Notes: generated from the letters alone by a model not told the origin. A DNA stretch of 64,000 nucleotides from an uncultured Oscillospiraceae bacterium (GCA_964607155.1 CAZSIF010000009.1:6795-70794), one strand, 5' to 3'. Shown: positions 5,901 through 36,203, counted from the first letter of the stretch. Made by a program: numbers and translations.

Positions 5901-8900
5901 ACGGAGTGCCGTAAGGTTAACGCTTGAAAGGCTTTCGCAACCGTCAAACGCCTTGTCGCCAACCGCATATACATTGGATAAATCAAGATTATCCAACGTT
6001 TTGCACTTGTAAAATGCCTGTCTGCCTATGGTTTCCACCTCAGTGCCCGTAAGGCTTTGAGGAGCGGTTGCCACGCTAAATACGAATTTGCCATTTTCCA
6101 GCTTGTATTTATCCGCCATCACCTCGCTACCCGTTTTTGCAACGGTATCAAGGCAAACGATACGCTCCAGCTTGGAACAGTTGAAAAATGCGTATTCGCG
6201 AATGATTTTTAGTTCTTTGGGAATTGCAACCTCGCGCAAGCCCTTACAGTTATAAAAAGCGTATTTTTGTATTTCCGTTACGCCCTCCGGAATAACAACC
6301 GAAGTAACCGTGGTATTGGTTGCGGGAATCTTGTTTGCATCGTAGTCGTCATCGGAAAGCTCAATTGAGTTATCCGTCGTGTACAAACAGAATGCATACG
6401 AGCCGATATATAAAATACCTTCGTCATCCGGAATGACGACATTGCCGCCCAATCCCTTGTACGCCACCAACACTCTGTTTTCGATAACGAATTCGCTCTT
6501 GACGGTAATTTGCACGGTTGCCTGTATTGCCGAGCCCTCCGCACGGAGAGTTATCTGCGCAAAGCCTTCCTTCAATGCCGTAATTTTACCATTTTCATCC
6601 ACGATTGCAACGTCCGTGTTATCGCTGATGTAAGTGAGGTTGTAGTTGTCCTCGGCATACCACGGGTCCAAATCGTAAAACAACTTGATTTGCTCGCCGG
6701 GATACATGCTGACGCCGTTCATGGATTGCAAAAACTTTCTGTCACCGGTAGCGCCGATTTCGCTCGTTTGCGCCGCCCTCGAATAGGCAAACACCGTATC
6801 GAAGTAGCTAAAGCGTAACGATTTTAGTTGCGCGTCGCTTGCGTCACCGATTATGCCTTCGGTTGATTTATCCTCGCGCGCCTTTACATTTACAATCATT
6901 ACAGCTTGATTGCCCGTTAGGTTTTCCGTTGCTGTAACAGTTGCCTTGCCTGCCGTCAAGCCCATAACGACACCGTCCTTGACGGAAATAATCTTATCGT
7001 TGGAGGTAGACCATGTGAGGTATTTGAGGTAATCTTTATCGGCATCAACGTTACTGTCCGTAGTGGACAAAAAGTTGGTGATATCCGCAACCTCGCCCTC
7101 GTACATGGACAGAATGATTTTCGATTCGCCGTCGGGCGTGCCGTCCTGCGTAAACTTCAATTCACCGTTAGTGCCGGGGAGCTGACACAGGAAGATATTG
7201 CTGTTAAGTGCGTAGTCGTCCACGGAAAAAGCCAATGCGCTTGTGATTATTTCGTCGGCAAACAAATCCTCGAGATAATCTGTAATTTCAATACGCACGG
7301 TCGTTTCGGAATTCTTTTCGCCGTAGACAGGAATTGGATTTTCCGTAAGGAAGGTGTAGCTGCTATCCGAGGTGAACACCAACGGAGCAATCGACATTAC
7401 ATAGTGATTGTCGTACACCGTAAGGTTGATATAGTAACGATCCTTTTTAAGGGACTTATCGTACACCTTTTCGTAAGTGGCATCGGTAATCAACGGAGCT
7501 TGATCGTCCATTGTAAAATCGAAGCTAAAGGTGTTGCGAGCGTTTGTGTACAAGCCACCGTCGCCGTAATCCAACATTGCTTGCATTTTGAACTCGTAAA
7601 CATGGTTATTTACCAAGCCCAAGCGCAATGATTTCCATCTTAGATACTCAAAATACGGATACGGTGTACCGTTGTAATATGCCTTTGTGGCATCGTAGTC
7701 GATGTACTCCATCATGGTTTCGCCCGTTTCGTAGTTGTACAGCGTTACTGGCTCACCGGTAGTTTTATCCGTTATGGTAAACTTTACAGCCTTTGCGTTG
7801 CGCAACATGCCTGCATACACTGCCGAAATTCCGTCGATTGCGCCCAAAATGTTGGATACTGCAATGCGATCCTCCGATGCGGGAATAGCATCGTACTTGC
7901 TTTCGTCGATAGTGTACAGGTATGTTCCGAGAGGAATCATATAGTTGTAGTAGTACGAACCGTACGGAGTTGTCGCCCAGTAATCGGCTTTGGTTTTATC
8001 CTCATCGTCGATTGCTTGGTCGTGCGCGTCCTCTTCCACCTCGTAATAGGTCTTATCGAACAGCGGAGCCTCCGTCCAGTCACCGTAGAAAGCAAGGAAC
8101 GGAACGTTGAGCGGAACCTCGTTATCCGCCGTTAGGCACACAAATCCCTCGACGTACATACCGTACAAAAAGCGTTGGTCAATGTAGTCCTTATCTTCCT
8201 GCGTAAGCGTGTAGGCAATACTTACGCTCACCGACTTGCCTGCCTCAACAGTGACGCTCGAACCCTTAACGCTGCCGTTGCCGCTAACGTAGCTAATCTC
8301 TGTTTTGCCGTCAAGCAGATGTCCCGTTTCCGCAACGTGAGTAGCATCGGACGTGGAAACGCTTTCCGACATGCCGATAACCGACAGATTGTATGTGAGC
8401 GGTTTGGTGGAGATGTTAACGACGTTGATTTCCATCGTGTACACACCCGTCCGCTTGGCGTCGTCCCCCAACTCTATTTTGGATTTCGATTTTACCGACG
8501 TTACACCGTCAACAGTTTCGTTAACGGTCAAATATGCGTTTGTTTGAACAACGTTGCCTGCGCTTGCAAGTCCTGCGCCCTGCTTACGCGGCGAATAAGG
8601 CACGCCCTCCTCGTTAAGGGCAACCGTTGCCGTAGACATAAGCATTTGATTGGCAATTTCGTTTATTTCCGCCGAGCTGTACTCGGGATACTTATCCTTG
8701 AGGTACTCGCGGATAAGCACCATAACGCCGCAAAGGTTGGGCGTTGCCATGGATGTACCACTAAGACGGTCGTACTTGGCATTAGGCACGGATGAATAAA
8801 TATCTCCGCCATGCGCTGTAATTTCCGGCTTTAGCTTGAGGTCAGGCGTCGGCCCCCAGCTGGAGAAATCCGACATAAACGGACCAGCAAGATTGCTTTC

Positions 8901-10682: not shown

Positions 10683-10690
10683 AAGCTCTC

Positions 10691-10912
10691 CTAAATTAGC
10701 CAAAAATACAACAATACCGCCACTGCCGAAAAGCATGCGATTGCGCCCAAAACGACAGGCAAGTACACCGCAAAAGCCGCTTTGATTGCCGCCTTGCGTT
10801 CCTTTTTTGTAAGCTCGGTTCCCTTCGTTTTGCATCTACCGCGATATAGCTCGTCCACGCCATCCATATTATAAATCGTGTGTCCGTCATCGACATAGGG
10901 TGTTTTTTTCAT
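10691..10912 (-). CDS. Small single-pass membrane protein (73 aa), function unknown
   Basis: ATG at 10912 is preceded by GGAGAG. It has a basic N-terminal half and a C-terminal TM helix (AFAVYLPVVLGAIACFSAVAVLLYFWLI). It sits between oppF and the protease gene, and its stop is 8 nt before the protease ATG. Confidence 0.55.
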   Translation of the reverse strand: MKKTPYVDDGHTIYNMDGVDELYRGRCKTKGTELTKKERKAAIKAAFAVYLPVVLGAIACFSAVAVLLYFWLI

Positions 10913-23856: not shown

Positions 23857-24723
23857 TTAGTGGCTGCCAGATAAATACACCGAGCCGCTTGTGCACTTGA
23901 CGCGCAACGCGCACGCCCCGCTACCGACAACGTACTCGTTTCCGTTTTGAGCATGCTCAACAGATACAACCTTGGAACCGCTCGTTGTGATTAGGCTTGC
24001 CGTTACGCCACGCGCGATATCCTGCAAGCGCAGCCTTACCGAGCCGCTTGTACTATCGACATTCACCTGTTCACAAGCGGACGTAATATTAAAACTCACA
24101 CTGCCGCTCGTGGAATTGACCTGCACTTGCTTTGCAGCAACATCGCCAAGCGAAACACTTCCGGAAGTCGTACGAACCTTAAGGCTATTGCACATTATTG
24201 CATTCGTTTTAATTGCCCCACTTGTGCTCCCCAAATCAACCGTGTTTGCAACAACACTGCTTGCGCAAAAACTTCCGGACATTTTGTCGACCACTACGCT
24301 ATCCGCCACGACGTCCTCACAGCGAATTTCACCGCTTGTAGACGTTATTTTAACACTCACGCCGCTCGGCACAACGACCGTAACGCTTTTATCCGAAGGA
24401 TTGACTGACGAAGCATAAGCGCTTTTCCAAAACTGAACGCACAAAACACCGTCTTTTACAACACTGCGCACGCGTTGCTCCTCCTGTAGCTCCTCCGCGC
24501 TCTCCGACACCGCCGTTTGTTCACCGTTTTCAACAACAAGCTGTCCGCATTTCCACACAACTTCAACGGCAGTTATCTGTTCTGCATACGTCTTACTGCC
24601 CACATTATAGCCGTCATCGTCGTACGCATCGCCCGTAACAAACGAGTACCTGCACCCGATAAGTACCGTCACGCTTACCGCCAATAAAACAACGGCAAGC
24701 AACAATGATAATGCTCTTTTCAC
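23857..24723 (-). CDS. DUF4097-like (putative adhesin / beta-helical) lipoprotein
   Basis: Repeated 'TSGS(V/I)' strands every ~20 aa in the C-terminal half. Signal peptide with Cys (VTVLIGC). GTG start with an AAGGAGAGAGG SD. Confidence 0.7.
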   Translation of the reverse strand: MKRALSLLLAVVLLAVSVTVLIGCRYSFVTGDAYDDDGYNVGSKTYAEQITAVEVVWKCGQLVVENGEQTAVSESAEELQEEQRVRSVVKDGVLCVQFWKSAYASSVNPSDKSVTVVVPSGVSVKITSTSGEIRCEDVVADSVVVDKMSGSFCASSVVANTVDLGSTSGAIKTNAIMCNSLKVRTTSGSVSLGDVAAKQVQVNSTSGSVSFNITSACEQVNVDSTSGSVRLRLQDIARGVTASLITTSGSKVVSVEHAQNGNEYVVGSGACALRVKCTSGSVYLSGSH

Positions 24724-24826
24724 AGCCCTCTCTCCTTACATAATTTTAATCTATTTTTTCTGCTTTTTCAAGCCCCTTTTGCAATAGTTTTCAACAAATC
24801 AGCACATTTCCGCGCCATTATCGCGC

Positions 24827-25456
24827 TCAAAGGTTTTCGCCAACATCCACGTCGGCACCGCATCGCCTCATTTTTGCCGACACCTCGTCATCCAAACCCA
24901 AAATAAGATTAACCGTTTGGCGCACCGAAGCGTTTGCGTCCAGCACCCACTCTGTGGATTCGTGCAAAATAAGACTGCCTACACCGTGCGACAAAAACAC
25001 GGCTGCCGTCCTATCGTCCATCAAGGGTTTTGCCCCAAATCGTTTTAGGCTAACAATTATCCTTTCGATATACGGTTCGATGACGGTAAGCGTTTGCTCC
25101 CGTATCGCCCAGCGTGTCGTTCGATGCATAACCGAAGCGTAACGCCCCCTGAACTCCGCTGTTTTATCCAACATATATTCAAAAAAATGCAACAGCGCTT
25201 GATACGGCTTGACTTCTGCAGCCAAGGCAAGGCGTTCAAAGTCCACCTTGTACGGCGCAAAAAAGTTGTCCATAACGTCCGAAAACAGGTCGTCTTTGCA
25301 TTTATAGTAGTAATAAAACAGCCCTACCTCGCACCCGATTTCGTCCGTTATTCCACGAATGCTTGTGCCGTCGTAGCCCTTGCGGAAAAACTTTGCAGTG
25401 GCAACCTCAATTATTTTATTTTTGGTGCCGCCGTCGTACTTCGGTTTTCGTGCCAT
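24827..25456 (-). CDS. TetR/AcrR-family transcriptional regulator
   Basis: N-terminal HTH 'KIIEVATAKFFRKGYDGTSIRGITDEIGCEVGLFYYYYKCKDDLF'. 209 aa. GGGAGGTG SD. Confidence 0.85.
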   Translation of the reverse strand: MARKPKYDGGTKNKIIEVATAKFFRKGYDGTSIRGITDEIGCEVGLFYYYYKCKDDLFSDVMDNFFAPYKVDFERLALAAEVKPYQALLHFFEYMLDKTAEFRGRYASVMHRTTRWAIREQTLTVIEPYIERIIVSLKRFGAKPLMDDRTAAVFLSHGVGSLILHESTEWVLDANASVRQTVNLILGLDDEVSAKMRRCGADVDVGENL

Positions 25457-25653: not shown

Positions 25654-25686
25654 AAAAAAAATGCGGACTTGATTACTCAAATCCGC
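25654..25686 (-). terminator. Rho-independent terminator of the hydrogenase transcription unit
   Basis: On the minus strand: GCGGATTTGA-GTAA-TCAAGTCCGC (9 of 10 pairs) followed by A + T8. It lies ~134 nt downstream of the stop at 25820. Confidence 0.75.
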
Positions 25687-25819
25687 AAATTCTAATTATT
25701 TACTACAATAGTTCGGCAAACATTTGTCCCACAGCAAGCGATATTCCAAAGCATCAAGTTCAACGTCAACTTGATTGCGCAAGAGTATCAGCCTTGCCAC
25801 ACACAAGACAGCGCAAATG

Positions 25820-27244
25820 TTACTTCAACACGGACACCGCGTCTGAGATAGTTTTTTCGTATGCTTCCATACCGTATTTATCCACCTCGCGTTTGTTCTT
25901 TTCGCCGTGAGTGAGGCAACCGGCGCCACCGATGCAACCGCCAACGCAAGCCATTCCCTCGATAAAGTTAGCATCCAACTTGCCCTTGGCTTTTTGCAAA
26001 AGCGCAAGCTTGCACGCCTCGATACCGTCGCAAACACATGGCTTAAGCTCAAAATCGGTAAGCCCTTGTTCCTTCAACCCCTGAACGACCGCATCCGATA
26101 ATCCGCCGGAACGAGCAAATATTCTGCCGAAGTACGAAGCGTTATCCAGCACGCCCTCCTCGAGCGTCGTTATGTCAACGTCCTTGCTATCAAACAACGC
26201 CTGCAACTCTTCAAAAGTGATAACGGAATCAACATACGGCTTGACCGTTTCCTTTTGGAACTCCATCTTTTTTGCCGTGCACGGCCCGATAAACACAACT
26301 TTACAGGGAGATTCGTGCTCCTTGATATACTTTGCGAGAGTGCCCATCGGCGACAGATTGTGCGAAACAAGCGGTTTGAGCTCGGGATAATTCTTGTCGA
26401 TAAAATCCACAAAAGCAGGGCAACAGCTGCTAGTCAAAAAGCCCTTTTCGTAAAGCTCACGCGACTCTGCCTCTGCGACCATATCCGCCCCCAAAGCAGC
26501 CTCGATAACAGTGTAAAACCCAAGCTCTTTCAAGCCAGTGATGACCTGCCCGAGCTTGCCATAAGTAAACTGACTGGAAATGGACGGCGCAACAATTGCA
26601 AACACCTTGTATTTAGTGTTATTGTTACTTTTTTTGATAATGTCAATAACGTTAAGAATAAACGACTTATCCGTAATTGCGCCGAACGGACATTGATACA
26701 CGCATGCGCCGCACGAAATGCATTTATTATTGTTTATGCACGCTTGTTTTTCGTCGCCCATCGAAATGGCTTTTACCTTACAAGCCGTTTCACACGGACG
26801 CTTGTAGTTGTGTATTGCGCTGTACGGACAAACCTTTGAGCATGCGCCGCACTCCTTACACTTGGATTTATCTATATGCGCCACATGGTTTGCGTCAAAT
26901 GTGATTGCGCCAAAACGACAAACATCCTCGCAACGGTGCGCCAGACAGCCGCGGCAAGCATTTGTGACTTCGTAACCACCCATAGGGCACTCGTCACAGG
27001 CAATATCGATAACCTCGATCACGTTGGGGTTTTGCTTATCACCGCCCATCGCAAGCTTTACGCGCTCGGCAAGAATTGCGCGTTCCTTGTACACACAGCA
27101 ACGCATCGTGGGCACCTTGCCCGGGACTATACGCTTGGGGATATCTATTGCCGTTTCGTGCAAAGTATCCGCCCAAGCATCGCGCGCAACCTCGCGCAAA
27201 ACCTTGTATTTAAGGTGCTGAACCTTAGTATCGAATTTTCTCAT
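25820..27244 (-). CDS. Monomeric [FeFe] hydrogenase, group-B-like (N-terminal multi-[4Fe-4S] ferredoxin region + H-domain)
   Basis: H-cluster motifs 'TSSCCPAFV', 'FIGPCTAKKME', 'EGMACVGGCIGGAGC'. Two CxxCxxCxxxCP ferredoxin motifs (CKECGACSKVCP, CISCGACVYQCP). AGAGG SD. Confidence 0.85.
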   Translation of the reverse strand: MRKFDTKVQHLKYKVLREVARDAWADTLHETAIDIPKRIVPGKVPTMRCCVYKERAILAERVKLAMGGDKQNPNVIEVIDIACDECPMGGYEVTNACRGCLAHRCEDVCRFGAITFDANHVAHIDKSKCKECGACSKVCPYSAIHNYKRPCETACKVKAISMGDEKQACINNNKCISCGACVYQCPFGAITDKSFILNVIDIIKKSNNNTKYKVFAIVAPSISSQFTYGKLGQVITGLKELGFYTVIEAALGADMVAEAESRELYEKGFLTSSCCPAFVDFIDKNYPELKPLVSHNLSPMGTLAKYIKEHESPCKVVFIGPCTAKKMEFQKETVKPYVDSVITFEELQALFDSKDVDITTLEEGVLDNASYFGRIFARSGGLSDAVVQGLKEQGLTDFELKPCVCDGIEACKLALLQKAKGKLDANFIEGMACVGGCIGGAGCLTHGEKNKREVDKYGMEAYEKTISDAVSVLK

Positions 27245-27302
27245 AAATACAACCTCTAAAGAATGTTAAATTATTTATCGTGGACATAAACCACATCTAA
27301 AG

Positions 27303-27337
27303 CGCCGTTATTGCGACGTCGAAGCTCGATAACGGCG
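27303..27337 (-). other. Stem-loop between the phosphatase and hydrogenase genes (weak terminator/attenuator candidate)
   Basis: 9-bp stem CGCCGTTAT/ATAACGGCG with a 17-nt loop. Only a short U-run (CTTT) follows on the minus strand. Confidence 0.3.
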
Positions 27338-27381
27338 GCGTTTGAGAATCGCTATCCTCGTCTGCGCCATCGAGCGACATA

Positions 27382-28554
27382 TTAAAAGTACGATACGATA
27401 ATCCGCTTACCCATCTTTGTAAGACATGCCGAGAGTTCCTCGACAAGATTCATTTTGATATTAAAGTTGATGGGCAAATTCGGGTTTTGGTGCGCAGGGT
27501 TAATTGCACGCCCCACAAAAAAGCTTATGTCCGTCGCTTCTTCAAAAAGCAGTCTTGAAATAAGCGACGCGCCGTCATGACGAACACTCCACTCGTCATA
27601 TAGTTTGTTATCAGCAATATAGTCCTTGGCGTAAGTCAACACCTTATTTATGGTAATAACGCCCTCGGTAACTAAATCAACACCCTCTATTTCCGCAATA
27701 GGAGGCACGTCGCTCGCCTCAAAAACAAGGCTGGGCTTTATCGGCTTGTTCAGATACCGTGCCACCACAGAGGAAGTTGTTCCGCCGCAAACGATATGTT
27801 TTCCGTTTTTGGAAAAGAACAGCGACGCCATGCGCATACTGTCGTTTTTATCCGACGACGGGCCAAACATTATATTTACGGGATTGCGCTTGCGAATACG
27901 CGCCACACACACCGTTGCGTCGTCGCCGGGCTTGCCGCCATACAAACGTTCGCACTCATCAACCAGCAAGGTCGCAAGATTTTTTGCAGTGTAACCGGCA
28001 TAAGCCAACGGAGCAATGAACTCTGCAATGTTATCCAGCTTCCAACCAAAGTTATAGGTAAGCCCCGTGCCCGCATGCGGACAGCCGTCGCTCATGGCAA
28101 CAATCACATCGTCTTCCCGCAGCGTTAGCGTAGAGCGATAAATCTTTTTTCCATCAATATTTAACTGGGTTTTTTCGTACTCCTCGCTTTTGCCGTTACG
28201 CAGCAGCAGCACGGTAGGGTTATCGTACTGCATAATATCCACCTTTTCGTTGTTCAAAAAGTGCAATATCGTAAAAGTGGAATAGGCAACGCCGCGCACC
28301 GAGCAGACCGGCAAGGTGGTAGCTATTGTTTTAACACAATCCTCCAACGATAACCCTTCGGATATCATGGTGGATATAATTTTGGACGTCAGCGTGGACA
28401 GAATACTTGCCTTTACGCCGCTACCCAAACCATCGGCAAGTACCACCACGGACGACCCCTCACCGGGATCAACTATATCTATATGGTCGCCGCACAGCTG
28501 CTCGCCGTAATGATTGATGCTTTTGTATCCTATTTCAAAACAAAGGTCATTCAT
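27382..28554 (-). CDS. SpoIIE/PP2C-family serine phosphatase with an uncharacterised ~190-aa C-terminal domain
   Basis: 'GEQLCGDHIDIV...VVVLADGLGSGVKASILS...AMSDGCPHAG' PP2C/SpoIIE-type metal-binding motifs. Start moved to ATG 28554, which overlaps the hydS stop by 8 nt (ATGAATGA). Confidence 0.8.
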   Translation of the reverse strand: MNDLCFEIGYKSINHYGEQLCGDHIDIVDPGEGSSVVVLADGLGSGVKASILSTLTSKIISTMISEGLSLEDCVKTIATTLPVCSVRGVAYSTFTILHFLNNEKVDIMQYDNPTVLLLRNGKSEEYEKTQLNIDGKKIYRSTLTLREDDVIVAMSDGCPHAGTGLTYNFGWKLDNIAEFIAPLAYAGYTAKNLATLLVDECERLYGGKPGDDATVCVARIRKRNPVNIMFGPSSDKNDSMRMASLFFSKNGKHIVCGGTTSSVVARYLNKPIKPSLVFEASDVPPIAEIEGVDLVTEGVITINKVLTYAKDYIADNKLYDEWSVRHDGASLISRLLFEEATDISFFVGRAINPAHQNPNLPINFNIKMNLVEELSACLTKMGKRIIVSYF

Positions 28555-30223
28555 TTTCGATAGACTCCTTAAGCTTGGTAAGCGCAACCTTCGTTTCCGC
28601 AGCCGTTTCGCCAAGAAGCGAAGCAATTTCCTGAACGATGCGCATTTGCTTATCAACAACCTTATCGGCGATGTCCACGGTTTGACGATTTACTCTACCC
28701 TTGCGTTCTTGCGCGTCCACCTCGTCGGTAATATCGCGCATAATGCCGATTATCAACTTGTTACTACGGTCATAGATCACGGTTTGTTCCACATACTTTT
28801 GATACTCCGCCAAAAACGTGCGTTGGTTTACAACCGAACGTCCCGTATCGCGCACCCTTATAAAGTGTATGGGATCAAGGATTCTGACCACATAGTCGCC
28901 CAAAATATCCGATGCGGAGCGCAAATTGACGATCTTTAACGCCGCGCTGTTGATTTGTTGAACCTCAAGGTTATCGTTTAGCACAACAATGCCGTTGGGC
29001 GTATTATTTACTATCGCGTCGGAAAAACTTTCCGCCTTTTCTTTGAGGAAGGGCAAACACATGGAGATTTCCGCCTTACCTTGATAGATGGCAATGGCTT
29101 TTTCTCGACAGGTGTTATAGCCGCACGATCCGCAATTAAGCTCATCTTCCGGCTTGTTTTTGCCCATTTTTTGCATGATTTCCCGAATTTCACCCTCGGT
29201 CGGCGGTTGCAACCTGTGCGCAATCTGCTCAAAGTGCTTTTTGGTATCCACCTCCGAAAGGGGCTGTACGTCAAAATCTTTGTTTCCTGCATACTTAGCA
29301 ACAGCCAAATAGTCCCTGATAGGCGAACGATGATACTTTTCCATTACCGGTCCGCCGATACAGCTGCCCACACATGCAGACATTTCGATAAAACAGTTGT
29401 GTATTTTGCCGTGTTCGATATCCTTTAATGCCGCCATGCAGTTTTCCACACCGTCAACAGCCATATAGGTATATTCCGGCAGACGCTCGACCATGGTTTT
29501 AAGCACGCCGCCTGTCGTCGGGAAAAATCTTGCGCGAGTGTTTTGGTTATCGTCCATATCGGGCACAAGCTCAATGCGTTCGTCCTTGAGCCAATTTGTT
29601 AGCTCCTCAAAAGTCAACACCGCGTCAACAATACCCTCGTAGTGATCCGCCTCGTCCTTTTTTGCCACGCACGGTCCGATAAACACAACTTTGGCATCGG
29701 GCACGCGACGTTTGATATCCAAGGCGTGCGCCTGCATAGGCGAAACGACGTTGGCAAGATAGGGCAACTGATTGGGAAAGTATTTTTGCACCAAAAGGTT
29801 AACGGAGTGACAGCAGGAAGATATCACGATATCGCGATGTTCCTCCACAAGTAACCGCTCGTACTCTTTTTTTACAATCGTTGCACCGATTGCCGTTTCT
29901 TCAACGCCCGCAAAACCCAGCTGTTTTAACGCAGCGGACATGCCGCCAATGCCAATGCCGTCGTAGTTGGCAATAAAGGAAGGCGCAATACTTGCGTAAA
30001 CGGGCGCACCCGATTGTATGAGCACGCGCACCTGTTCCAGCTCTCCGGTAATTTCCTTGGCGTTTTGCGGACACACCACAAAGCATTGACCGCACAATAT
30101 GCACTCGTTGCCTATTATGTGCGCCTGATTTGCCGAAAATCGTATTGACTTTACGGGGCAGTGTCTGATGCATTTATAGCAATTTTTGCAGTTGGATTTT
30201 TTTAGTTTGAGCCAATCCGACAT
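28547..30223 (-). CDS. hydS: Putative sensory [FeFe] hydrogenase (group C, HydS-type): ferredoxin N-terminus, H-domain, extra Cys4 motif, PAS domain, coiled-coil tail
   Basis: 'CKNCYKCIRHCP' and 'CILCGQCFVVCP'. Divergent H-cluster motifs 'ISSCCHSV', 'FIGPCVAKKDE', 'IEMSACVGSCIGGPV'. 'CGSCGYNTCREKA...C', then a PAS-like ~110 aa ('NTPNGIVVLNDNLEVQQINSAALKI...'). GAGAGG SD. Confidence 0.8.
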   Translation of the reverse strand: MSDWLKLKKSNCKNCYKCIRHCPVKSIRFSANQAHIIGNECILCGQCFVVCPQNAKEITGELEQVRVLIQSGAPVYASIAPSFIANYDGIGIGGMSAALKQLGFAGVEETAIGATIVKKEYERLLVEEHRDIVISSCCHSVNLLVQKYFPNQLPYLANVVSPMQAHALDIKRRVPDAKVVFIGPCVAKKDEADHYEGIVDAVLTFEELTNWLKDERIELVPDMDDNQNTRARFFPTTGGVLKTMVERLPEYTYMAVDGVENCMAALKDIEHGKIHNCFIEMSACVGSCIGGPVMEKYHRSPIRDYLAVAKYAGNKDFDVQPLSEVDTKKHFEQIAHRLQPPTEGEIREIMQKMGKNKPEDELNCGSCGYNTCREKAIAIYQGKAEISMCLPFLKEKAESFSDAIVNNTPNGIVVLNDNLEVQQINSAALKIVNLRSASDILGDYVVRILDPIHFIRVRDTGRSVVNQRTFLAEYQKYVEQTVIYDRSNKLIIGIMRDITDEVDAQERKGRVNRQTVDIADKVVDKQMRIVQEIASLLGETAAETKVALTKLKESIENE

Positions 30224-30300
30224 ATTAAACCTCTCGCACTATAATTTGCGCATAAATACGCAGCCACAATCGCATCGCGCCTAAAATGTGCCCGATACGC

Positions 30301-30326
30301 AAAACAAGCCGAAGGTGGCTTGTTTT
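30301..30326 (-). terminator. Internal terminator/attenuator hairpin between the ferredoxin genes and hydS
   Basis: AAAACAAGCC-GAAGGT-GGCTTGTTTT. On the minus strand the GC core is followed by TTTTGCG. A second small hairpin, GCGCA-ACCT-TGCGC, lies at 30358-30371. Confidence 0.45.
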
Positions 30327-30394
30327 GTTGGCATAATTTGAATTATTTGTTTATAAAGCGCAACCTTGCGCCCTAAAGAGTGCATTTACGCACC

Positions 30395-30661
30395 TTAAAT
30401 TGCCGTTTGTGCATTTACCGCGGGCATAACGGATTTATTCCAGAACTCGTTGAAGTTATCCCTTGTAATACCAACGCACACTTCGTCGCCGACAGTTACG
30501 GTTACTCCCTCGCGGTTGCACTTACCCGAACAAAACGAGCCGGTAAGCACAATTTTATCGTCCAACCCATTTTCGGATATATACTTGCGGAACAGCTCGA
30601 CGATATCCTCCGAGCCTTTTAAGTGGCACGAACTACCCACGCAAATCTGAATGATAAGCAT
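30395..30661 (-). CDS. Thioredoxin-like [2Fe-2S] ferredoxin (NuoE/HndA-like small protein), copy 2
   Basis: 88 aa with Cys pattern 'CVGSSCHLKG...FCSGKC'. Its ATG is directly adjacent to the stop of copy 1 (TAAATG). Confidence 0.75.
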   Translation of the reverse strand: MLIIQICVGSSCHLKGSEDIVELFRKYISENGLDDKIVLTGSFCSGKCNREGVTVTVGDEVCVGITRDNFNEFWNKSVMPAVNAQTAI

Positions 30662-30907
30662 TTATGCAATCCTCGAAACGATTTCCTTTTCAAAGAAGTC
30701 CGCAACCGTTTCCGGACTGACGGAAAACAGTTTGTCGTCCACCGTAACACACACGCCCTGCTGGCACTTGCCCATACAAAACGTTCCGCCAAGCTCCACA
30801 ACGTCCTTAAGATTACTTTCCGCTATAAGGTACTGAAGTTCCTCAACAACCTGACGCGAGCCCTTAATGTGGCAGGAGCTACCGATACAAACCTTTACTT
30901 TTACCAT
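30662..30907 (-). CDS. Thioredoxin-like [2Fe-2S] ferredoxin, copy 1
   Basis: 81 aa with 'CIGSSCHIKG...FCMGKC'. A paralogue of the following gene. AAGGAGAG SD. Confidence 0.75.
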   Translation of the reverse strand: MVKVKVCIGSSCHIKGSRQVVEELQYLIAESNLKDVVELGGTFCMGKCQQGVCVTVDDKLFSVSPETVADFFEKEIVSRIA

Positions 30908-30928
30908 GTGATTAGCTCTCCTTGTTTT

Positions 30929-31678
30929 TTATTCGTAGTCCACTACGTTTGCCCAAGACAAAAGAAATTCTCTTTCGTGTTGGTTGCCCTTGACGGATTG
31001 CGAAGCCGCAACAATGGGCATCCATTTTTGAACGTACTGCTTTGCCGTACCGCTTTTTTCGCAGAACAAATCCAAATATTCGTTTGCGCCGTCGATATCG
31101 CCTGCCAGCCAGAACAACAAGTATGTTCTTGCCACATCGGCAGATGCGTTACCTTGCGTTGCGTGCGACCAGTCCAAAACGTACGGCGTACCGTCGTCTG
31201 CGATTATTATGTTGGACGGATTAAAATCGCCGTGGCACAATTTGTTGTGCTTGGGCATTCCTTCCAAACGAGTGTGCAAATCGTATCTTGTCGTTGCGTC
31301 GATATCCGCTTGCGAAATTTTACGATTCATTTTGTCCTTGAGCTTGCCCAAAAGAGGACAAGTTTTGGACTGAACTTCCATTTGCAAATTGACAAACAAT
31401 TCAAGGTATTCGTGTTTTTTATCAGGATTTTCCGCCATAAGCCTATCAAGAGTTTTACCCTTAATATACTCGGACACGATTGCCCACTTTCCGTCAATCA
31501 TTGTTACCGCTTTGATTTTGGGAATATTCAAACCGGTATGCTCTACCCTTGCCTGATTAAGCGCTTCGTTAAGCACGTCGTCTTTGGCGTAGTCGCTATC
31601 AAAAACCTTAACGCAATCTTCGCCGTCACGGTAGATTGTTTTGTTGTTGCGTACAGCAATCACTCTGTCAAGCTTCAT
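30929..31678 (-). CDS. Protein-kinase-like fold phosphotransferase (APH/choline-kinase family)
   Basis: Catalytic loop 'CHGDFNPSNIII' and metal-binding 'VLDWSHA'. 249 aa. AAGGAGG SD located 14 nt after the adhE stop. Confidence 0.75.
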   Translation of the reverse strand: MKLDRVIAVRNNKTIYRDGEDCVKVFDSDYAKDDVLNEALNQARVEHTGLNIPKIKAVTMIDGKWAIVSEYIKGKTLDRLMAENPDKKHEYLELFVNLQMEVQSKTCPLLGKLKDKMNRKISQADIDATTRYDLHTRLEGMPKHNKLCHGDFNPSNIIIADDGTPYVLDWSHATQGNASADVARTYLLFWLAGDIDGANEYLDLFCEKSGTAKQYVQKWMPIVAASQSVKGNQHEREFLLSWANVVDYE

Positions 31679-31692
31679 TGTATTGACCTCCT

Positions 31693-34386
31693 TTACGCTT
31701 TGCTACCGCTTTTGCTTTTGCGGTAGGATTTTTTGAAATCGTGAACTTCGTCTTCCGTAACGTTTGCCGTCGGTACGGGCGTTTCCTTAAAAGACTTTCC
31801 GTAGTAAGCATTAAGATACATTTGCTTTATCTCGCTCATAAGCGGATAACGCGGATTTGCACCTGTACATTGATCGTCGAACGCCTGCTCAACCATGTCA
31901 TCCAGTCTTGCAAGGAAATCGGCTTCGTCCGGAACGTAATCCTTGATTGTGGGCTTAATGCCAACAACTTCTTTGAGATCGTCCAATGCCTTTATAAGAT
32001 TATCAACCTTTTCCTTATCGGTTGCGCCGACAATTCCAAGATACTCGGCAACTTCGGCATATCTACGCAAAGTGTGAGGATGGTCATATTGCGGGAACGT
32101 ACCCATCTTTGCAGGAACTTCCGCAGAGTTAAAGCGAATTACCTCATCCAACATAAGCGCATTAGCTACGCCGTGCGGAATGTGGTGGAATGCGCCCAAC
32201 TTGTGCGCCATGGAGTGGCACACGCCAAGGAATGCGTTTGCAAACGCCATACCTGCCATAGTGGCAGCATTTGCCATTTTTTCTCTCGCTTCAACATCGG
32301 TTTGACCGTTTTCATAAGCGCGAGGCAAATAATCGAAAATGGTTTTGAGCGCTTTGAGTGCCAAACCGTCTGTGTAGTCGGTTGCCATCATCGAAGCATA
32401 TGCTTCCAACGCGTGGCTTACAGCGTCAATACCGGATGCAGCAGTAAGTCCCTTGGGCGCACTCATATGGAAGTCCGTATCGATAATTGCCATGTTGGGC
32501 AACAACTCGTAGTCGGCAAGAGGATATTTAACACCGGTGCGTTCGTCCGTGATAACGGCAAACGGAGTAACTTCCGAACCTGTTCCTGCCGAAGTGGGGA
32601 TAGCGATAAAGTAAGCCTTTTCGCCCATTTTAGGGAACGTGTACACACGTTTGCGAATATCCATAAAGCGCATTGCCATATCGAGGAAGTCCACTTCTGG
32701 ATGTTCGTACATTACCCACATAATCTTGGCTGCGTCCATTGCGGAGCCGCCACCCAATGCAATAATGCAATCGGGTTGGAACGCATTCATTTGCGCTACG
32801 CCCTCTTTAGCACACGCAAGTGTGGGATCGGGTGCAACGTCAAAGAACGTCGTGTGTGTGATGCCCATCTGATTGAGCTTGTCCACGATGGGTTGCGTGT
32901 AACCATGATTGTACAGGAAGCTATCGGTAACGATAAATGCCTTTTTCTTGTGCATAACCGTTTTAAGCTCGTCAAGAGCAACCGGCAAGCAGCCTTTTTT
33001 GATATAAACCTTTTCGGGCGCTCTGAACCAAAGCATATTTTCTCTCCTTTCCGCAACTGTTTTGATATTCAAAAGGTGCTTAACTCCGACGTTTTCCGAC
33101 ACGGAGTTTCCACCCCATGAGCCGCAACCAAGCGTAAGCGACGGAGCAAGACGGAAGTTGTACAAGTCGCCGATACCGCCTTGCGACGAAGGAGTATTTA
33201 CAAGGATACGACAGGTTTTCATTCTCTCGCCAAATTCAGCAAGAACGTCCTGACGAGTAGTAACGTTAAGATATATGCTGGAAGTGTGACCGAAACCGCC
33301 GTCTGCGATAAGACGTTCTGCCTTATTGAACGCGTCCTGAATATCGTTAGCCTTGTACATTGCAAGCACGGGAGAAAGCTTTTCGTGAGCAAACTCTTCC
33401 GAAAGTTCAACGCTTTCCACTTCGCCAATAAGGATTTTTGTTCCAACGGGAACTTTAACACCTGCAAGCTCTGCGATTTTAGCAGCTTTTTGACCAACGA
33501 TTTTTGCATTCAGCGCGCCGTTGATGATTATCGTTTTGCGAACCTTTTCCGTTTCGGCAGGGTTGAGGAAATAGCAACCTCTTTCAGCAAACTCTTTCTT
33601 CGCCTTGTCGTACACGTCTGCAAGCACGATAACCGATTGCTCGGATGCGCAAATCATACCGTTATCAAATGTTTTCGAGTGAATAATAGAGTTAACTGCA
33701 AGAGTGATATCGGCAGAACTGTCGATGATTGCAGGCGTATTACCTGCGCCCACGCCGAGTGCCGGTTTACCGCTGGAATATGCAGCCTTTACCATCCCCG
33801 GGCCACCGGTTGCAAGAATAATATCAGCCTCTTTCATTACAAGGTTTGTCATTTCCAAACTGGGAACATCTATCCAACCGATAATATCCTTCGGCGCACC
33901 TGCCTCGATTGCAGCTTCCAACACCACTTTTGCTGCGGCAATGGTCGATTGCTTTGCTCTGGGGTGCGGACTGATGATAATTCCGTTGCGAGTTTTAAGT
34001 GCGATAAGCGTTTTGAAAATCGCCGTAGAAGTCGGGTTGGTTGTAGGAATAACCGCAGCAATAACGCCGATGGGTTCTGCAATCTTTTTGATGCCAAACG
34101 CCTTATCCTCTTCGATTACGCCGCAAGTTTTTGTATCTTTATACGCATTGTAAATATATTCGGCGGCATAATGGTTTTTGATAACCTTATCTTCCACCAC
34201 ACCCATGCCGGTTTCAGCCACTGCTGCCTTGGCAAGAGGAATACGCATTTTGTTCGCCGCAAGTGACGCTGCAAGGAAAATTTTATCTACCTGCTCTTGC
34301 GTAAAGCGAGAGTATTCCTTTTGCGCCGCTCTAACATCGGCAATTTTTTGTTCCAAAGTTTGAACACTGTCTACCAAATAATTCAT
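31693..34386 (-). CDS. adhE: Bifunctional acetaldehyde-CoA/alcohol dehydrogenase AdhE
   Basis: ~897 aa. N-terminal ALDH domain with 'DNGMICASEQ' (catalytic Cys) and C-terminal Fe-ADH domain ('GGGSAMDAAK', His-rich 'CHSMAHKLGAFHHIPHG'). Start set to ATG 34386 (GGAGG 7 nt upstream), which overlaps the rex stop (TAATG). Confidence 0.95.
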   Translation of the reverse strand: MNYLVDSVQTLEQKIADVRAAQKEYSRFTQEQVDKIFLAASLAANKMRIPLAKAAVAETGMGVVEDKVIKNHYAAEYIYNAYKDTKTCGVIEEDKAFGIKKIAEPIGVIAAVIPTTNPTSTAIFKTLIALKTRNGIIISPHPRAKQSTIAAAKVVLEAAIEAGAPKDIIGWIDVPSLEMTNLVMKEADIILATGGPGMVKAAYSSGKPALGVGAGNTPAIIDSSADITLAVNSIIHSKTFDNGMICASEQSVIVLADVYDKAKKEFAERGCYFLNPAETEKVRKTIIINGALNAKIVGQKAAKIAELAGVKVPVGTKILIGEVESVELSEEFAHEKLSPVLAMYKANDIQDAFNKAERLIADGGFGHTSSIYLNVTTRQDVLAEFGERMKTCRILVNTPSSQGGIGDLYNFRLAPSLTLGCGSWGGNSVSENVGVKHLLNIKTVAERRENMLWFRAPEKVYIKKGCLPVALDELKTVMHKKKAFIVTDSFLYNHGYTQPIVDKLNQMGITHTTFFDVAPDPTLACAKEGVAQMNAFQPDCIIALGGGSAMDAAKIMWVMYEHPEVDFLDMAMRFMDIRKRVYTFPKMGEKAYFIAIPTSAGTGSEVTPFAVITDERTGVKYPLADYELLPNMAIIDTDFHMSAPKGLTAASGIDAVSHALEAYASMMATDYTDGLALKALKTIFDYLPRAYENGQTDVEAREKMANAATMAGMAFANAFLGVCHSMAHKLGAFHHIPHGVANALMLDEVIRFNSAEVPAKMGTFPQYDHPHTLRRYAEVAEYLGIVGATDKEKVDNLIKALDDLKEVVGIKPTIKDYVPDEADFLARLDDMVEQAFDDQCTGANPRYPLMSEIKQMYLNAYYGKSFKETPVPTANVTEDEVHDFKKSYRKSKSGSKA

Positions 34387-35012
34387 TATGACCTCCATTT
34401 GTTATTTGACGTAACGGCAAGAACCGCCACGGATGAAGCAAGATTTTCGTTTTTAACAACCACTCCGTCGGGAACGGTCAGTATCAAAGGAGCAAAGTTC
34501 CATATCGCCCGTATGCCGTTGGCAACCATTTTATCGCATACGGATTGCGCTTGATTTTCCGGCACGGCAATAATGCCTATGCCGATATCGTTTTGCGCAC
34601 AAAAGTCATCAAATTCCGTTATGGGCAATATCTTTTCGCTTTCCGCCGTTACCGACGGGTTTTCGTCAAAAGCGGCAAGTATTCGCACGCCGTATTCGTC
34701 AAAGTTATCGCAAAACAGCAACGCTTTGCCAATATGCCCTGCACCTATTATCACAGCGTTAACTACTCGACTGATAGCCAGTGCGTCCTCTAAATGGCGG
34801 ATAAGCTCGCTTTTAACATACCCGATCTTGGGCTTGCCTGCACCGCTAACCATTGCCAAATCCTTACGCACTTGTACCTCGCCCAGTTGCAACGCTTTGG
34901 CTATTGCTCCGGACGAAACAGTGTCCGCATCGGCAGGATACAAAAACTTGACGTAATGCAAATAAGCCGGCAGTCTGTTGAGTACTGCGTTGGGGAATTT
35001 GTCGTTACACAT
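34386..35012 (-). CDS. rex: Redox-sensing transcriptional repressor Rex
   Basis: 'LNRLPAYLHYVKFL' winged-helix N-terminus, Rossmann motif 'VIIGAGHIGKAL', 208 aa. AAGGAGA SD. Confidence 0.9.
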   Translation of the reverse strand: MCNDKFPNAVLNRLPAYLHYVKFLYPADADTVSSGAIAKALQLGEVQVRKDLAMVSGAGKPKIGYVKSELIRHLEDALAISRVVNAVIIGAGHIGKALLFCDNFDEYGVRILAAFDENPSVTAESEKILPITEFDDFCAQNDIGIGIIAVPENQAQSVCDKMVANGIRAIWNFAPLILTVPDGVVVKNENLASSVAVLAVTSNNKWRS

Positions 35013-35035
35013 TACAGTATCTCCTTATCGATACC

Positions 35036-35064
35036 ATTTTATCGATTAACACAAAAAAATGCAA
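35036..35064 (-). promoter_or_regulatory. Candidate sigma-A promoter of rex-adhE
   Basis: Minus strand: TTGCAT (35064..35059), 17 nt, TAAAAT (35041..35036). The ATG lies ~24 nt downstream of the -10. The direct repeat TTATCGAT (35025-35032 and 35039-35046) straddles the -10. Confidence 0.45.
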
Positions 35065-35279
35065 ATACTTGTTTTACATACTGGTATATGTTTTTTGATA
35101 TATCAACTCGTTTCTCGCAAGACAGTCGCGCTCACGACAAAACTCGCCACAATGTCATTGTATCGCACCGATAAGCCGCACGCCATCCGCAATAGCTTTA
35201 TCGGCGAGCAATGCGCCTTACCGACGTAATCGATATGCAAACGATGCCGTACGTTTTCCGTGCGTCCCAATAACCGTGC

Positions 35280-36203
35280 TTAGCCCAAGTGCTTGCGCTT
35301 AGCCAAGCAGAGTTCTGTTACAAACTGCCTATCCACATCGGTTAGACGGTAATCTTTGGGGTAAATCAACACGTCCTTGTACACCCTATCTACATCGGCA
35401 ACATCAAGCTGCACTAAATCGTATCTATCCAGCGTTTGTTGCGGCTCACGCGATGTCCACATAAAGGCATCGGCGTTGCTTGCCAAAATATCAAACTCGC
35501 TTGCACGTTCGAAAACAAAAATGCGACGCGACACTCCGCGAGAAAGCTCGGCATTGCGCACCTCCGCCATTGGAACGGTTGGCACAAACGGGTCGGCATT
35601 GGCAATTTCGATGTAGTTATCCAAATCCGCAAGCGTTGGCGTAATAGCGGCAAGCGGACTGTTTTTATTAACCAACAATACAGGCGTGAACTCGGCAACA
35701 AGCTCGTAGGCAAGCTCCTTTTGTTCCAGCATTGCTTTGAAATACTTGTCGTAGCAGGAGTTGTAACGAACAATGCCCAGTTTGTACTCGGCGTGAACGA
35801 TGTTGTTTATCGCACGCAAGGCGTTGGTTTCCTTATAATATACTTCAAATTCGTCCGACGACAAAGTTTCCACAAAACTCGCAAAGGCAACAGAGATGTA
35901 GCCGGCACGAGGGGCGGACAGCGAAAATGCGGATTTTTTATCGGCATTGCCCGTTTTGAACATGCTTTCCACTTCTTCGATGTTGTGCAAAATGGTTTTG
36001 CCGTAATTGATAAGCCGTTCGCCATCAGTGGTTACGCGAATTCCGTGCGGAGTACGGTCAAATATGGTAACATTGAGCTCCTTTTCCAGTTCCTTGACGG
36101 CTCGACTTAAATTGGGCTGCGCGATGTAAAGCTTTTCCGACGCCTTGCTTATCGAACCGCAGTTGGCAATTTCCACCGCATATTTTAGATATTGAATATT
36201 CAT
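35280..36203 (-). CDS. LysR-family transcriptional regulator
   Basis: N-terminal HTH 'MNIQYLKYAVEIANCGSISKASEKLYIAQPNLSRAVKELEKELNVTIFDR'. 307 aa. Confidence 0.88.
   Translation of the reverse strand: MNIQYLKYAVEIANCGSISKASEKLYIAQPNLSRAVKELEKELNVTIFDRTPHGIRVTTDGERLINYGKTILHNIEEVESMFKTGNADKKSAFSLSAPRAGYISVAFASFVETLSSDEFEVYYKETNALRAINNIVHAEYKLGIVRYNSCYDKYFKAMLEQKELAYELVAEFTPVLLVNKNSPLAAITPTLADLDNYIEIANADPFVPTVPMAEVRNAELSRGVSRRIFVFERASEFDILASNADAFMWTSREPQQTLDRYDLVQLDVADVDRVYKDVLIYPKDYRLTDVDRQFVTELCLAKRKHLG

Follow-up and report, generated by a model that had tools for sequence, protein, structure and literature searches.

In gut and rumen fermenters, the partial pressure of H2 sets the balance between the formation of acetate plus H2 and the diversion to ethanol. 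Methane output, cross-feeding, and biofuel yields all depend on this choice, and the leading candidate for the sensor involved is an operon type that combines a PAS-bearing [FeFe] hydrogenase, HydS, with a PP2C phosphatase. Here, we analyzed a member of this operon type in a 64,000-nt stretch of DNA from an uncultured Oscillospiraceae bacterium; the whole stretch is called the window below, and cluster coordinates are counted from its first letter. An earlier note on the same DNA had described a "complete" cluster of eight genes, coding for Rex, AdhE, a kinase-like protein, two small ferredoxins, HydS, a PP2C phosphatase, and a second hydrogenase. Our analysis identifies the locus as the orthologue of the H2-responsive "high-H2 fermentation" operon of Ruminococcus albus 7, probably under three layers of control, exerted by Rex, by a candidate LysR site, and by HydS together with PP2C. 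To the published picture it adds a conserved LysR gene, a promoter element, the invariant tail of HydS, the C-terminal domain of the PP2C phosphatase, and the family of the kinase.

Closest described systems

The closest described system is that of Ruminococcus albus 7. Besides its hydrogenase genes, this unit is said, in the abstract of Zheng et al. 2014, to have aldehyde/alcohol dehydrogenase, kinase, phosphatase, and Rex genes as well. On pRumal01, HydA2 and HydS belong to one transcriptional unit (PMC10838669). Rumal_3400-3407 were termed a "putative eight-gene cluster" by Greening et al. (2019, PMC6776011), who listed them in the order CoA-binding domain protein (corresponding to Rex), iron-containing alcohol dehydrogenase, aminoglycoside phosphotransferase, two hypothetical proteins, PAS/PAC sensor protein, SpoIIE protein, and hydrogenase. 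In coculture with the H2 consumer Wolinella succinogenes, the expression of all eight genes was 90- to 130-fold lower (PMC6776011, Table S7). Pure cultures, in which H2 builds up, express the cluster, and removal of H2 shuts it down almost completely (PMC6776011, PMC10838669). The LysR gene Rumal_3399 was not among the differentially expressed genes in the former study, which is uninformative on the activity of LysR either way. With respect to the earlier note, which had called both the signal path and the transcriptional output of such clusters unknown, these data make the second point partly outdated.

In Thermoanaerobacterium saccharolyticum and T. thermosaccharolyticum, the hfsABCD operon (Shaw 2009; Eminoglu 2017; PMC11837493) shares its core order with the window: first a small protein, then the PAS hydrogenase HfsB, the PP2C phosphatase HfsC, and the ferredoxin-linked hydrogenase HfsD. 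It is tied genetically to adhE expression and ethanol yield. However, adhE and rex are located elsewhere on the Thermoanaerobacterium chromosome, the operon is devoid of a kinase, and HfsA has been described as unlike known proteins and not as a [2Fe-2S] ferredoxin (PMC11837493). The relationship is drawn from literature that equates HfsB with HydS and HfsD with HydA2 (PMC5707799, PMC11837493). Deletion of hfsA or hfsB led to a 2- to 3-fold increase in adhE expression and to more ethanol, while deletion of hfsC, hfsD, or the whole of hfsABCD did not have this effect (PMC5707799). The hfsB deletion also increased hydrogenase activity (PMC5707799), and hfsD alone, in a strain deleted for hfsABCD, was sufficient for the high-ethanol phenotype (PMC11837493).

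A similar logic is found in the HoxBC-HoxJ-HoxA system of Cupriavidus necator, in which a low-activity hydrogenase senses H2 and phosphorylation steers the transcription of hydrogenase genes (PMC5707799). There, however, the sensor is an [NiFe] enzyme acting through a histidine kinase and a response regulator; the proteins are unrelated, and no homology has been reported.

Gene content and orthology with the R. albus operon

We found eight codirectional open reading frames (ORFs) on the minus strand of the window, between positions 25820 and 35012, at the places given by the earlier note, and profile searches confirmed all of its domain labels. The promoter and the terminator that it had proposed were also recovered, at 35036-35065 and 25662-25687. 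In contrast, calling the cluster complete was premature, as a conserved LysR gene upstream of rex and a cis-element had been missed. The features of the locus are as follows.

35280-36203, minus strand: LysR-family transcriptional regulator, 307 aa, directly upstream of rex (PF00126 HTH_1, E 8e-18)
35071-35104, minus strand: degenerate copy of the conserved upstream dyad element, stopping ~5 nt short of the -35 box
35036-35065, minus strand: candidate sigma-70 promoter (-35 TTTGCA, 35065-35060; 18-nt spacer; -10 TAAAAT, 35041-35036)
35028-35045, minus strand: TCGATA-AAATGG-TATCGA, a perfect 6-6-6 dyad lying over the -10 box
34386-35012, minus strand: Rex, NADH/NAD+-sensing repressor, 208 aa (NF003994, 224 bits; cutoff, 130)
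31693-34386, minus strand: AdhE, bifunctional acetaldehyde-CoA/alcohol dehydrogenase, 897 aa from M5 (NF010378, 1399 bits)
30929-31678, minus strand: phosphotransferase of the aminoglycoside phosphotransferase (APH)/choline-kinase type, 249 aa (PF01636 APH, E 2e-12)
30662-30907, minus strand: thioredoxin-like [2Fe-2S] ferredoxin 1 (fdx1), 81 aa (PF01257, 31.7 bits)
30395-30661, minus strand: thioredoxin-like [2Fe-2S] ferredoxin 2 (fdx2), 88 aa (PF01257, 28.2 bits)
30224-30394, minus strand: structured fdx2-hydS spacer, 171 nt (minimum free energy, -59.7 kcal/mol; z = -4.1)
28547-30223, minus strand: HydS, putative H2-sensing group C3 [FeFe] hydrogenase, 558 aa (two Fer4, Fe_hyd_lg_C, PF04060, PAS)
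27382-28554, minus strand: SpoIIE/RsbU-type PP2C phosphatase, 390 aa (PF07228 SpoIIE match)
25820-27244, minus strand: group B, ferredoxin-linked type [FeFe] hydrogenase (hydB), 474 aa (TIGR04105 FeFe_hydrog_B1, 558 bits; cutoff, 450)
25662-25687, minus strand: intrinsic terminator closing the unit (11-bp stem with 5 G-C pairs, 4-nt loop, T8)

The nine genes, LysR included, were colinear with RUMAL_RS17345-17385 of the R. albus 7 plasmid pRUMAL01, all on one strand and with identities between 46% and 76%. We located this R. albus locus (NC_014824.1, 137906-147916; our L083) by tblastn of a plasmid collection. Identity amounted to 52% for LysR, 46% for Rex, 76% for AdhE, 74% for the kinase, 75% for Fdx1, 62% for Fdx2, 68% for HydS, 71% for PP2C, and, over the full length, 75% for the group B hydrogenase. 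The annotation of pRUMAL01 gives the order LysR, Rex, AdhE, phosphotransferase, two (2Fe-2S) ferredoxin-domain proteins, HydS-type hydrogenase, SpoIIE phosphatase, and hydrogenase. Hence, genes, order, strand, and the upstream LysR gene are the same in both organisms; the 8-nt overlap between hydS and pp2c is also shared, by the window, R. albus, and Monoglobus alike, and a dyad element of a similar type abuts the -35 box in R. albus as in the window. Because the nine proteins align colinearly at 46% to 76% identity, we identify the locus, by sequence, as a one-to-one syntenic orthologue of the published R. albus operon. This lends the functional reading given in the earlier note a support that goes beyond domain content.

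The two loci also show differences. The R. albus copy is carried by a 420-kb megaplasmid, and the window comes from a metagenome-assembled genome (MAG) of an uncultured gut lineage. The host lineages differ as well, the genomes closest to the window having 79% to 88% HydS identity. Finally, the degenerate state of the upstream element, the TCGATA-N6-TATCGA dyad over the -10 box, and the structured 171-nt spacer before hydS (10 nt in R. albus) are specific to the window in this comparison. As a side observation, PLSDB types pRUMAL01 as mobilizable, with a MOBP relaxase.

The cluster type is thus already known, and the window contributes a further member from an uncultured gut lineage. On the basis of the fusion of the sensor with its presumed outputs into one unit, the earlier note had ranked the cluster as the most promising under-characterized system of the window; its novelty was overstated, since the same arrangement has been published for R. 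albus. The question of the signaling path is real, but the window is no more testable in this regard than the cultivable R. albus.

Junctions and spacers

The start of AdhE is most likely at 34386 (M5), although the open frame reaches 34398. This codon has a GGAGG at a distance of 5 nt on its upstream side and shares 1 nt with the rex stop (TAATG), and the gene call in the closest relative (L081) is also of 897 aa. We further corrected the start of PP2C to the ATG at 28554, so that it overlaps the hydS stop by 8 nt (ATGAATGA), and pp2c is predicted to be translationally coupled to hydS. The remaining junctions are a 1-nt overlap between rex and adhE (the rex TAA stop lying within TAATG) and gaps of 14 nt between adhE and the kinase gene, 21 nt between the latter and fdx1, 0 nt between fdx1 and fdx2 (TAAATG), 171 nt between fdx2 and hydS, and 137 nt between pp2c and hydB. 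The junctions had been described as minimal or overlapping, which holds for five of the seven (overlapping or at most 21 nt) but not for the last two.

Compared with its shuffles, the 171-nt fdx2-hydS spacer is much more stably folded (z = -4.1). Its hairpins lie at 30355-30374 and 30301-30328, the second being terminator-like and followed by UUUU, and the central hairpin is kept in two contigs with an 88%-identical HydS (L081 and L082; P0002). Elsewhere this junction is mostly about 15 nt long (range, 10 to 25 nt, including R. albus). The hairpin before hydS in the window could be a place where the transcription unit is split. The pp2c-hydB spacer did not fold better than its shuffles (z = -0.67). 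Searching the fdx2-hydS spacer and other parts of the sequence against Rfam revealed no riboswitch or known RNA at gathering thresholds, and the sole match at E ≤ 1 was a subthreshold L20-leader near the terminator. The terminator after hydB (25662-25687) was judged strong.

Conservation across genomes

We surveyed HydS relatives with one genome per species and examined the neighborhoods of the best 80 matches. Relatives were present in at least 585 species-level genomes. Among the best 80 of these, HydS identity ranged from 70% to 79%, and the genomes were mostly gut, rumen, and fecal MAGs of uncultured Clostridia/Oscillospiraceae. In this survey of gene order, which the earlier note had suggested, the order of the cluster was kept in these best 80 of at least 585 genomes.

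Detailed synteny counts were made on the 43 loci with sufficient flanking DNA. All 43 had fdx-fdx-hydS-pp2c, and in 40 of them the group B hydrogenase followed directly after PP2C. Most had the kinase and adhE, and about 40% had rex. The kinase gene lay within the operon in most loci, with 49% to 84% identity to that of the window, and the median identity of PP2C across related loci was 71%. Monoglobus pectinilyticus had only a minimal core of ferredoxin, hydS, pp2c, and hydrogenase, which fits the four-gene hfsABCD layout described for Thermoanaerobacterium.

HydS and the group B hydrogenase

HydS is composed of two N-terminal [4Fe-4S] clusters, an H-domain, a C-terminal four-cysteine cluster (C364, C367, C372, C389), a PAS domain, and a C-terminal helix. 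Profile scores were E 1e-50 for Fe_hyd_lg_C, E 1e-10 for PF04060, and 23.3 bits for PAS (cutoff, 22.6). The H-cluster ligands C138, C185, C284, and C288 were all conserved, as were the cysteines of the C-terminal cluster, and alignments to solved hydrogenases identified the motifs L1 SSCCH (C137, C138), L2 GPC, and L3 EMSAC. In the second sphere, G183 and S282 occupy the positions of CpI M353 and M497. This matches HydS of Thermotoga maritima (TmHydS), a biochemically characterized group C sensor that has the same domain plan and also carries Gly and Ser at these positions. Unlike TmHydS, which has an alanine (A131) at the proton-relay position (CpI C299), the window protein retains a cysteine there (C137), and it harbors a His in place of the Pro in the TSCCP motif.

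In HydDB, group C3 is defined as "phosphatase-linked," and in the window the phosphatase gene directly adjoins hydS. Because its H-domain region is 69% identical to the fragment of the C3 enzyme Rumal_3405, and in view of its domain layout, we assign HydS to group C3 as a putative H2 sensor. The biochemistry published on low turnover and on H2-dependent signaling changes covers TmHydS and TamHydS only. It had been read in the earlier note as a PAS-bearing enzyme and not an ordinary group A hydrogenase, and this is in agreement with both the identity to Rumal_3405 and the PAS score above cutoff.

The predicted C-terminal helix, which covers the last ~45 residues (~512-558; 28547-28690), was almost invariant in 81 orthologues and better conserved than the PAS domain in the same set. 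It is likely a docking surface.

The second hydrogenase had been assigned to group B, an assignment borne out by its TIGR04105 score (558 bits, above the cutoff of 450) and by its identity to Rumal_3407 (70% to the fragment, 75% over the full length). Its motifs TSSCCP, GPCTAKK, and EGMACVGGC are intact. By sequence comparison, hydB is assigned as a group B hydrogenase orthologous to R. albus HydA2 and to HfsD, the link to HfsD coming from the literature. HydDB classified the R. albus fragments as C3 for Rumal_3405 and, by best match, as group B for Rumal_3407 (PMC6776011, supplement); the main text of the same paper, unlike its supplementary classification, labels the R. albus ferredoxin-only hydrogenase A1.

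PP2C, kinase, ferredoxins, and Rex

In the PP2C phosphatase, residues D23, D41, G42, D156, D211, and D212 were invariant, so that all metal-binding aspartates are kept, and the closest fold was the phosphatase domain of Bacillus subtilis SpoIIE (E 1e-8). RsbP is a phosphatase of PAS-coiled-coil-PP2C architecture. With regard to the Bacillus phosphatases RsbP, RsbU, and SpoIIE, the window PP2C falls within the SpoIIE family by both Pfam and fold, and it has a PAS domain and a helical linker just before the phosphatase, but on a separate, coupled polypeptide, which resembles a split PAS-coiled-coil-PP2C protein. However, Pfam scans of 37 of the larger window ORFs detected neither a STAS nor a HATPase_c domain and no GHKL-type kinase. 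No partner-switching module made of PP2C, STAS, and GHKL proteins was thus found among these ORFs, and the cluster differs from Bacillus partner switching in this as well as in its APH-type kinase and in an additional C-terminal domain of PP2C.

This additional domain, an alpha/beta domain of ~165 aa (residues 226-390; 27382-27879), is highly conserved and contains the motifs CGGTTS and NPAHQNP. It matched nothing in Pfam at E ≤ 10. A profile search of the PDB gave a phosphoheptose isomerase as the only, nonsignificant match (E 0.14), and Foldseek gave methylglyoxal synthase (E 5e-3), starting from a model with a mean predicted local distance difference test (pLDDT) value of 65. These matches suggest, without reaching significance, a phosphosugar-binding alpha/beta fold (SIS, methylglyoxal synthase-like).

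The catalytic residues of the kinase were invariant, with K24 (catalytic Lys), E38 (Glu), H149, G150, D151, and N156 (HGD-N), and D169 (Asp). Its Pfam matches were APH, RIO1, and TCAD9 but not Pkinase, and its AlphaFold2 model (pLDDT 79) was nearest to APH(3') folds, at a template modeling (TM) score of ~0.56, compared to ~0.40 for Hanks kinases. Both profile and model thus place it in the APH/choline-kinase branch and not among Hanks-type Ser/Thr protein kinases. The description as a kinase-like protein stands, given the conserved catalytic residues. Because of this family assignment, the label of Ser/Thr protein kinase is an assumption, and so is the pairing of the kinase with PP2C.

Both ferredoxins had conserved C7, C12, C44, and C48 in NuoE-type spacing (77 orthologues for Fdx1). 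Profile and PDB searches both showed an ordinary Rex protein, with T. ethanolicus Rex as the best PDB match (3wg9, E 3.5e-35), a GAGHIG Rossmann motif at residues 90-95, and a QVRKDL recognition helix.

A conserved LysR gene and conserved promoter elements

A full-length LysR orthologue was present at the same position and on the same strand in 37 of the 43 well-flanked loci, whichever cluster gene came first. In R. albus 7, it is RUMAL_RS17345 (L083, 3270-4202), with 52% identity. Its DNA-binding domain and linker match BenM, CatM, CysB, and OxyR in the PDB, and these matches span residues 1-116 only. Our literature search found nothing relevant on this LysR gene or on the dyad element in connection with the cluster.

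An anchored comparison of the spacers between lysR and the first cluster gene revealed a block of ~30 bp before a -35-like hexamer in most loci. In R. albus and in most rex-first loci, this block reads TATCGATA-N7-TA(C/T)CGATA and occurs in up to three copies; R. albus has a perfect TATCGATAAAGATAATATCGATA at the equivalent place (L083, 4270-4300). The window carries GATATATC-N7-ATATACC-AG-TATGTAAAAC, a degenerate version of TATCGATA-N7-TAYCGATA. Among all matches to the element with up to two mismatches in ~1.4 Mb of loci, 38 of 44 lie 35 to 393 nt upstream of the first cluster gene. The candidate promoter itself scored 9/12 in our scan, a modest match to the consensus, but the order of element, -35 box, -10 box, and dyad recurs in orthologous loci and supports it. 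The TATCGATA palindromes were found in 17 of 18 rex-first loci compared to 6 of 26 others (Fisher p = 2e-6), a test that ignores shared ancestry and gives only a lead.

In ~28 orthologous loci, a canonical clostridial Rex box (TTGTTAAAATATTAACAA) lies over the -10 box. At this very position, the window has the dyad TCGATAAAATGGTATCGA, which deviates from the canonical box at 5 of the 14 specified positions and is the sole perfect match to TCGATA-N6-TATCGA in the window. No match to the canonical Rex operator TTGTKAA-N4-TTMACAA with two or fewer mismatches was found anywhere in the window. LysR, Rex, or both may bind the dyads.

Pairs of TATCGATA with up to three mismatches also occurred elsewhere in the window, with 9 matches against 0.6 expected (for example, at 11392, 47035, 51170, 59701, and 63244). 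We rejected these as operators. As all of them lie inside long ORFs, they are probably artifacts of codon composition.

In one related locus (L056, 2851-7479), two arrays are present. The first immediately follows lysR and precedes an operon of iron alcohol dehydrogenase, short-chain dehydrogenase, and NfnAB genes; the other then precedes rex-kinase-fdx-fdx-hydS-pp2c-hydB. This layout suggests that electron-sink genes form a small regulon.

A model of three-layer control and its alternatives

We consider it fairly probable that this orthologue of the "high-H2 fermentation" operon is regulated as follows, where we infer all protein-protein and protein-DNA contacts. As outputs, AdhE would drain NADH to ethanol, and the group B hydrogenase would drain reduced ferredoxin to H2. 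In R. albus, both would be needed only upon H2 buildup, when the bifurcating hydrogenase can no longer reoxidize NADH. In the first layer, Rex would sit on the dyad over the -10 box and be released as NADH/NAD+ rises, as its position and the canonical boxes in relatives suggest. The second layer would consist of an activator-type site at the -35 box, tentatively attributed to LysR from synteny and geometry. In the third layer, H2 would alter the state of the H-cluster in a low-turnover HydS, and the signal would pass via the region of the C-terminal four-cysteine cluster and PAS domain and via the invariant C-terminal helix to the coupled PP2C. HydS free of H2 would keep the PP2C/hydrogenase branch off, and H2, or the loss of HydS, would free it. 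PP2C would then strip a phosphate, possibly one added by the APH-like kinase, from a target for which the two small ferredoxins, Rex, LysR, the group B hydrogenase, and AdhE are candidates. The deletion phenotypes in Thermoanaerobacterium and the sufficiency of hfsD lead us to place HydS upstream of the PP2C/hydrogenase branch, with a negative effect on it. These genetic data, together with the response of R. albus to H2, are the reason why we favor release of the HydS-PP2C branch by H2.

Several points weigh against this model. No organism is known in which such a contact or phosphorylation event has been demonstrated. A 2026 study on TamHydS, an enzyme of group D, names the interaction partners as the key unknown and found that H2 does not reduce its C-terminal [4Fe-4S] cluster. 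With C137 kept at the C299-equivalent site, unlike in TmHydS, the turnover of HydS may be higher than that of a pure sensor. The effector domain of LysR is too diverged for recognition by Pfam, with no LysR_substrate match even at E ≤ 1. Binding of Rex to the -10 dyad of the window is unproven, given the 5 of 14 positions that differ from the canonical box. The kinase could act on a small molecule, and it is missing in some loci, in hfsABCD, and in Monoglobus, though PP2C is kept. Lastly, a rise in NADH acting via Rex alone could explain H2-dependent transcription.

The last point leads to an alternative in which Rex alone, or Rex with LysR, controls transcription, while HydS, PP2C, and the kinase tune hydrogenase or AdhE activity posttranslationally. 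High H2 would block NADH reoxidation by the bifurcating hydrogenase, NADH/NAD+ would go up, and Rex would leave the promoter. This would fit with rex being the first gene of the operon, with the canonical boxes over the -10 box in many orthologous loci, and with enzyme activities in T. saccharolyticum that are not explained by adhE transcripts and for which posttranscriptional control was proposed (PMC5707799); the increased hydrogenase activity upon hfsB deletion and the phenotype conferred by hfsD alone also speak for it (PMC5707799, PMC11837493). Yet hfsB deletion does lift adhE transcripts 2- to 3-fold (PMC5707799), a 90- to 130-fold change, as seen in R. albus, is a great deal to ascribe to Rex alone, and about half of the related loci keep HydS and PP2C but have no cluster-borne rex. 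We judge control of this kind unlikely. Another role, HydS as a catalytic or electron-transfer subunit of an Hfs-type hydrogenase formed with the ferredoxins and the group B enzyme, and merely fine-tuned by PAS and PP2C, seems highly improbable to us. The four Cys that ligate the H-cluster, like the Cys in the proton-relay position, are kept, small FeS proteins always co-occur, the group B hydrogenase follows PP2C in 40 of 43 well-flanked loci, and purified HydS-type enzymes do turn over H2, albeit slowly. However, a lost subunit is hard to reconcile with a hydrogenase activity that is raised, not lowered, by hfsB deletion and with an hfsD that works alone (PMC5707799, PMC11837493), and sensory groups are characterized by the kind of replacements found at the M353 and M497 positions as well as by the PAS domain and the coupled PP2C.

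With regard to the kinase, YtaA-like proteins and the kinase domains of lanthipeptide synthetases phosphorylate proteins or peptides, and such proteins, namely, the spore-coat protein YtaA and lanthipeptide synthetase kinase domains, are among the fold matches of the window protein. This argues against the idea that the APH-like enzyme is a small-molecule kinase, acting on a metabolite or cofactor, and that the kinase and the substrate belonging to PP2C are encoded elsewhere, as in partner switching. Its nearest relatives by sequence and fold are nevertheless aminoglycoside, choline, and hygromycin kinases, and the absence of the gene from Monoglobus, hfsABCD, and some related loci with PP2C points in the same direction. 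On the other hand, the gene lies inside the operon in most loci, it is coregulated in R. albus, where it went down 114-fold in the coculture (PMC6776011), and no STAS substrate or GHKL-type kinase was found among the scanned window ORFs. On balance, we hold a small-molecule kinase to be somewhat unlikely.

Returning to the three-layer model, its HydS branch might end in transcription. LysR and the TATCGATA-type dyad array would then be the transcriptional output of the HydS pathway, with PP2C and the kinase setting the phosphorylation of LysR or else of a Rex paralogue that is encoded in the cluster and has an altered operator specificity. This protein would then bind the array and turn on the operon and, in some species, the alcohol dehydrogenase-NfnAB operon. 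We regard this extension as speculative and quite unlikely; if true, a hydrogen-sensing phosphorelay that ends in LysR or Rex would be of a sort not yet described.

Neighboring genes

Beyond the terminator, 23857-25456 on the minus strand codes for a regulator of the TetR family and for a "toastrack" protein (DUF4097). We considered these genes as members of the unit and rejected them, as they are kept only in the closest relative (L081). Farther away, 2991-10835 on the minus strand encodes a predicted surface protein of 2614 aa in which subtilase, PA, Ig-like, and Fn3-like domains occur together with eight regions of leucine-rich repeats of the BspA type.

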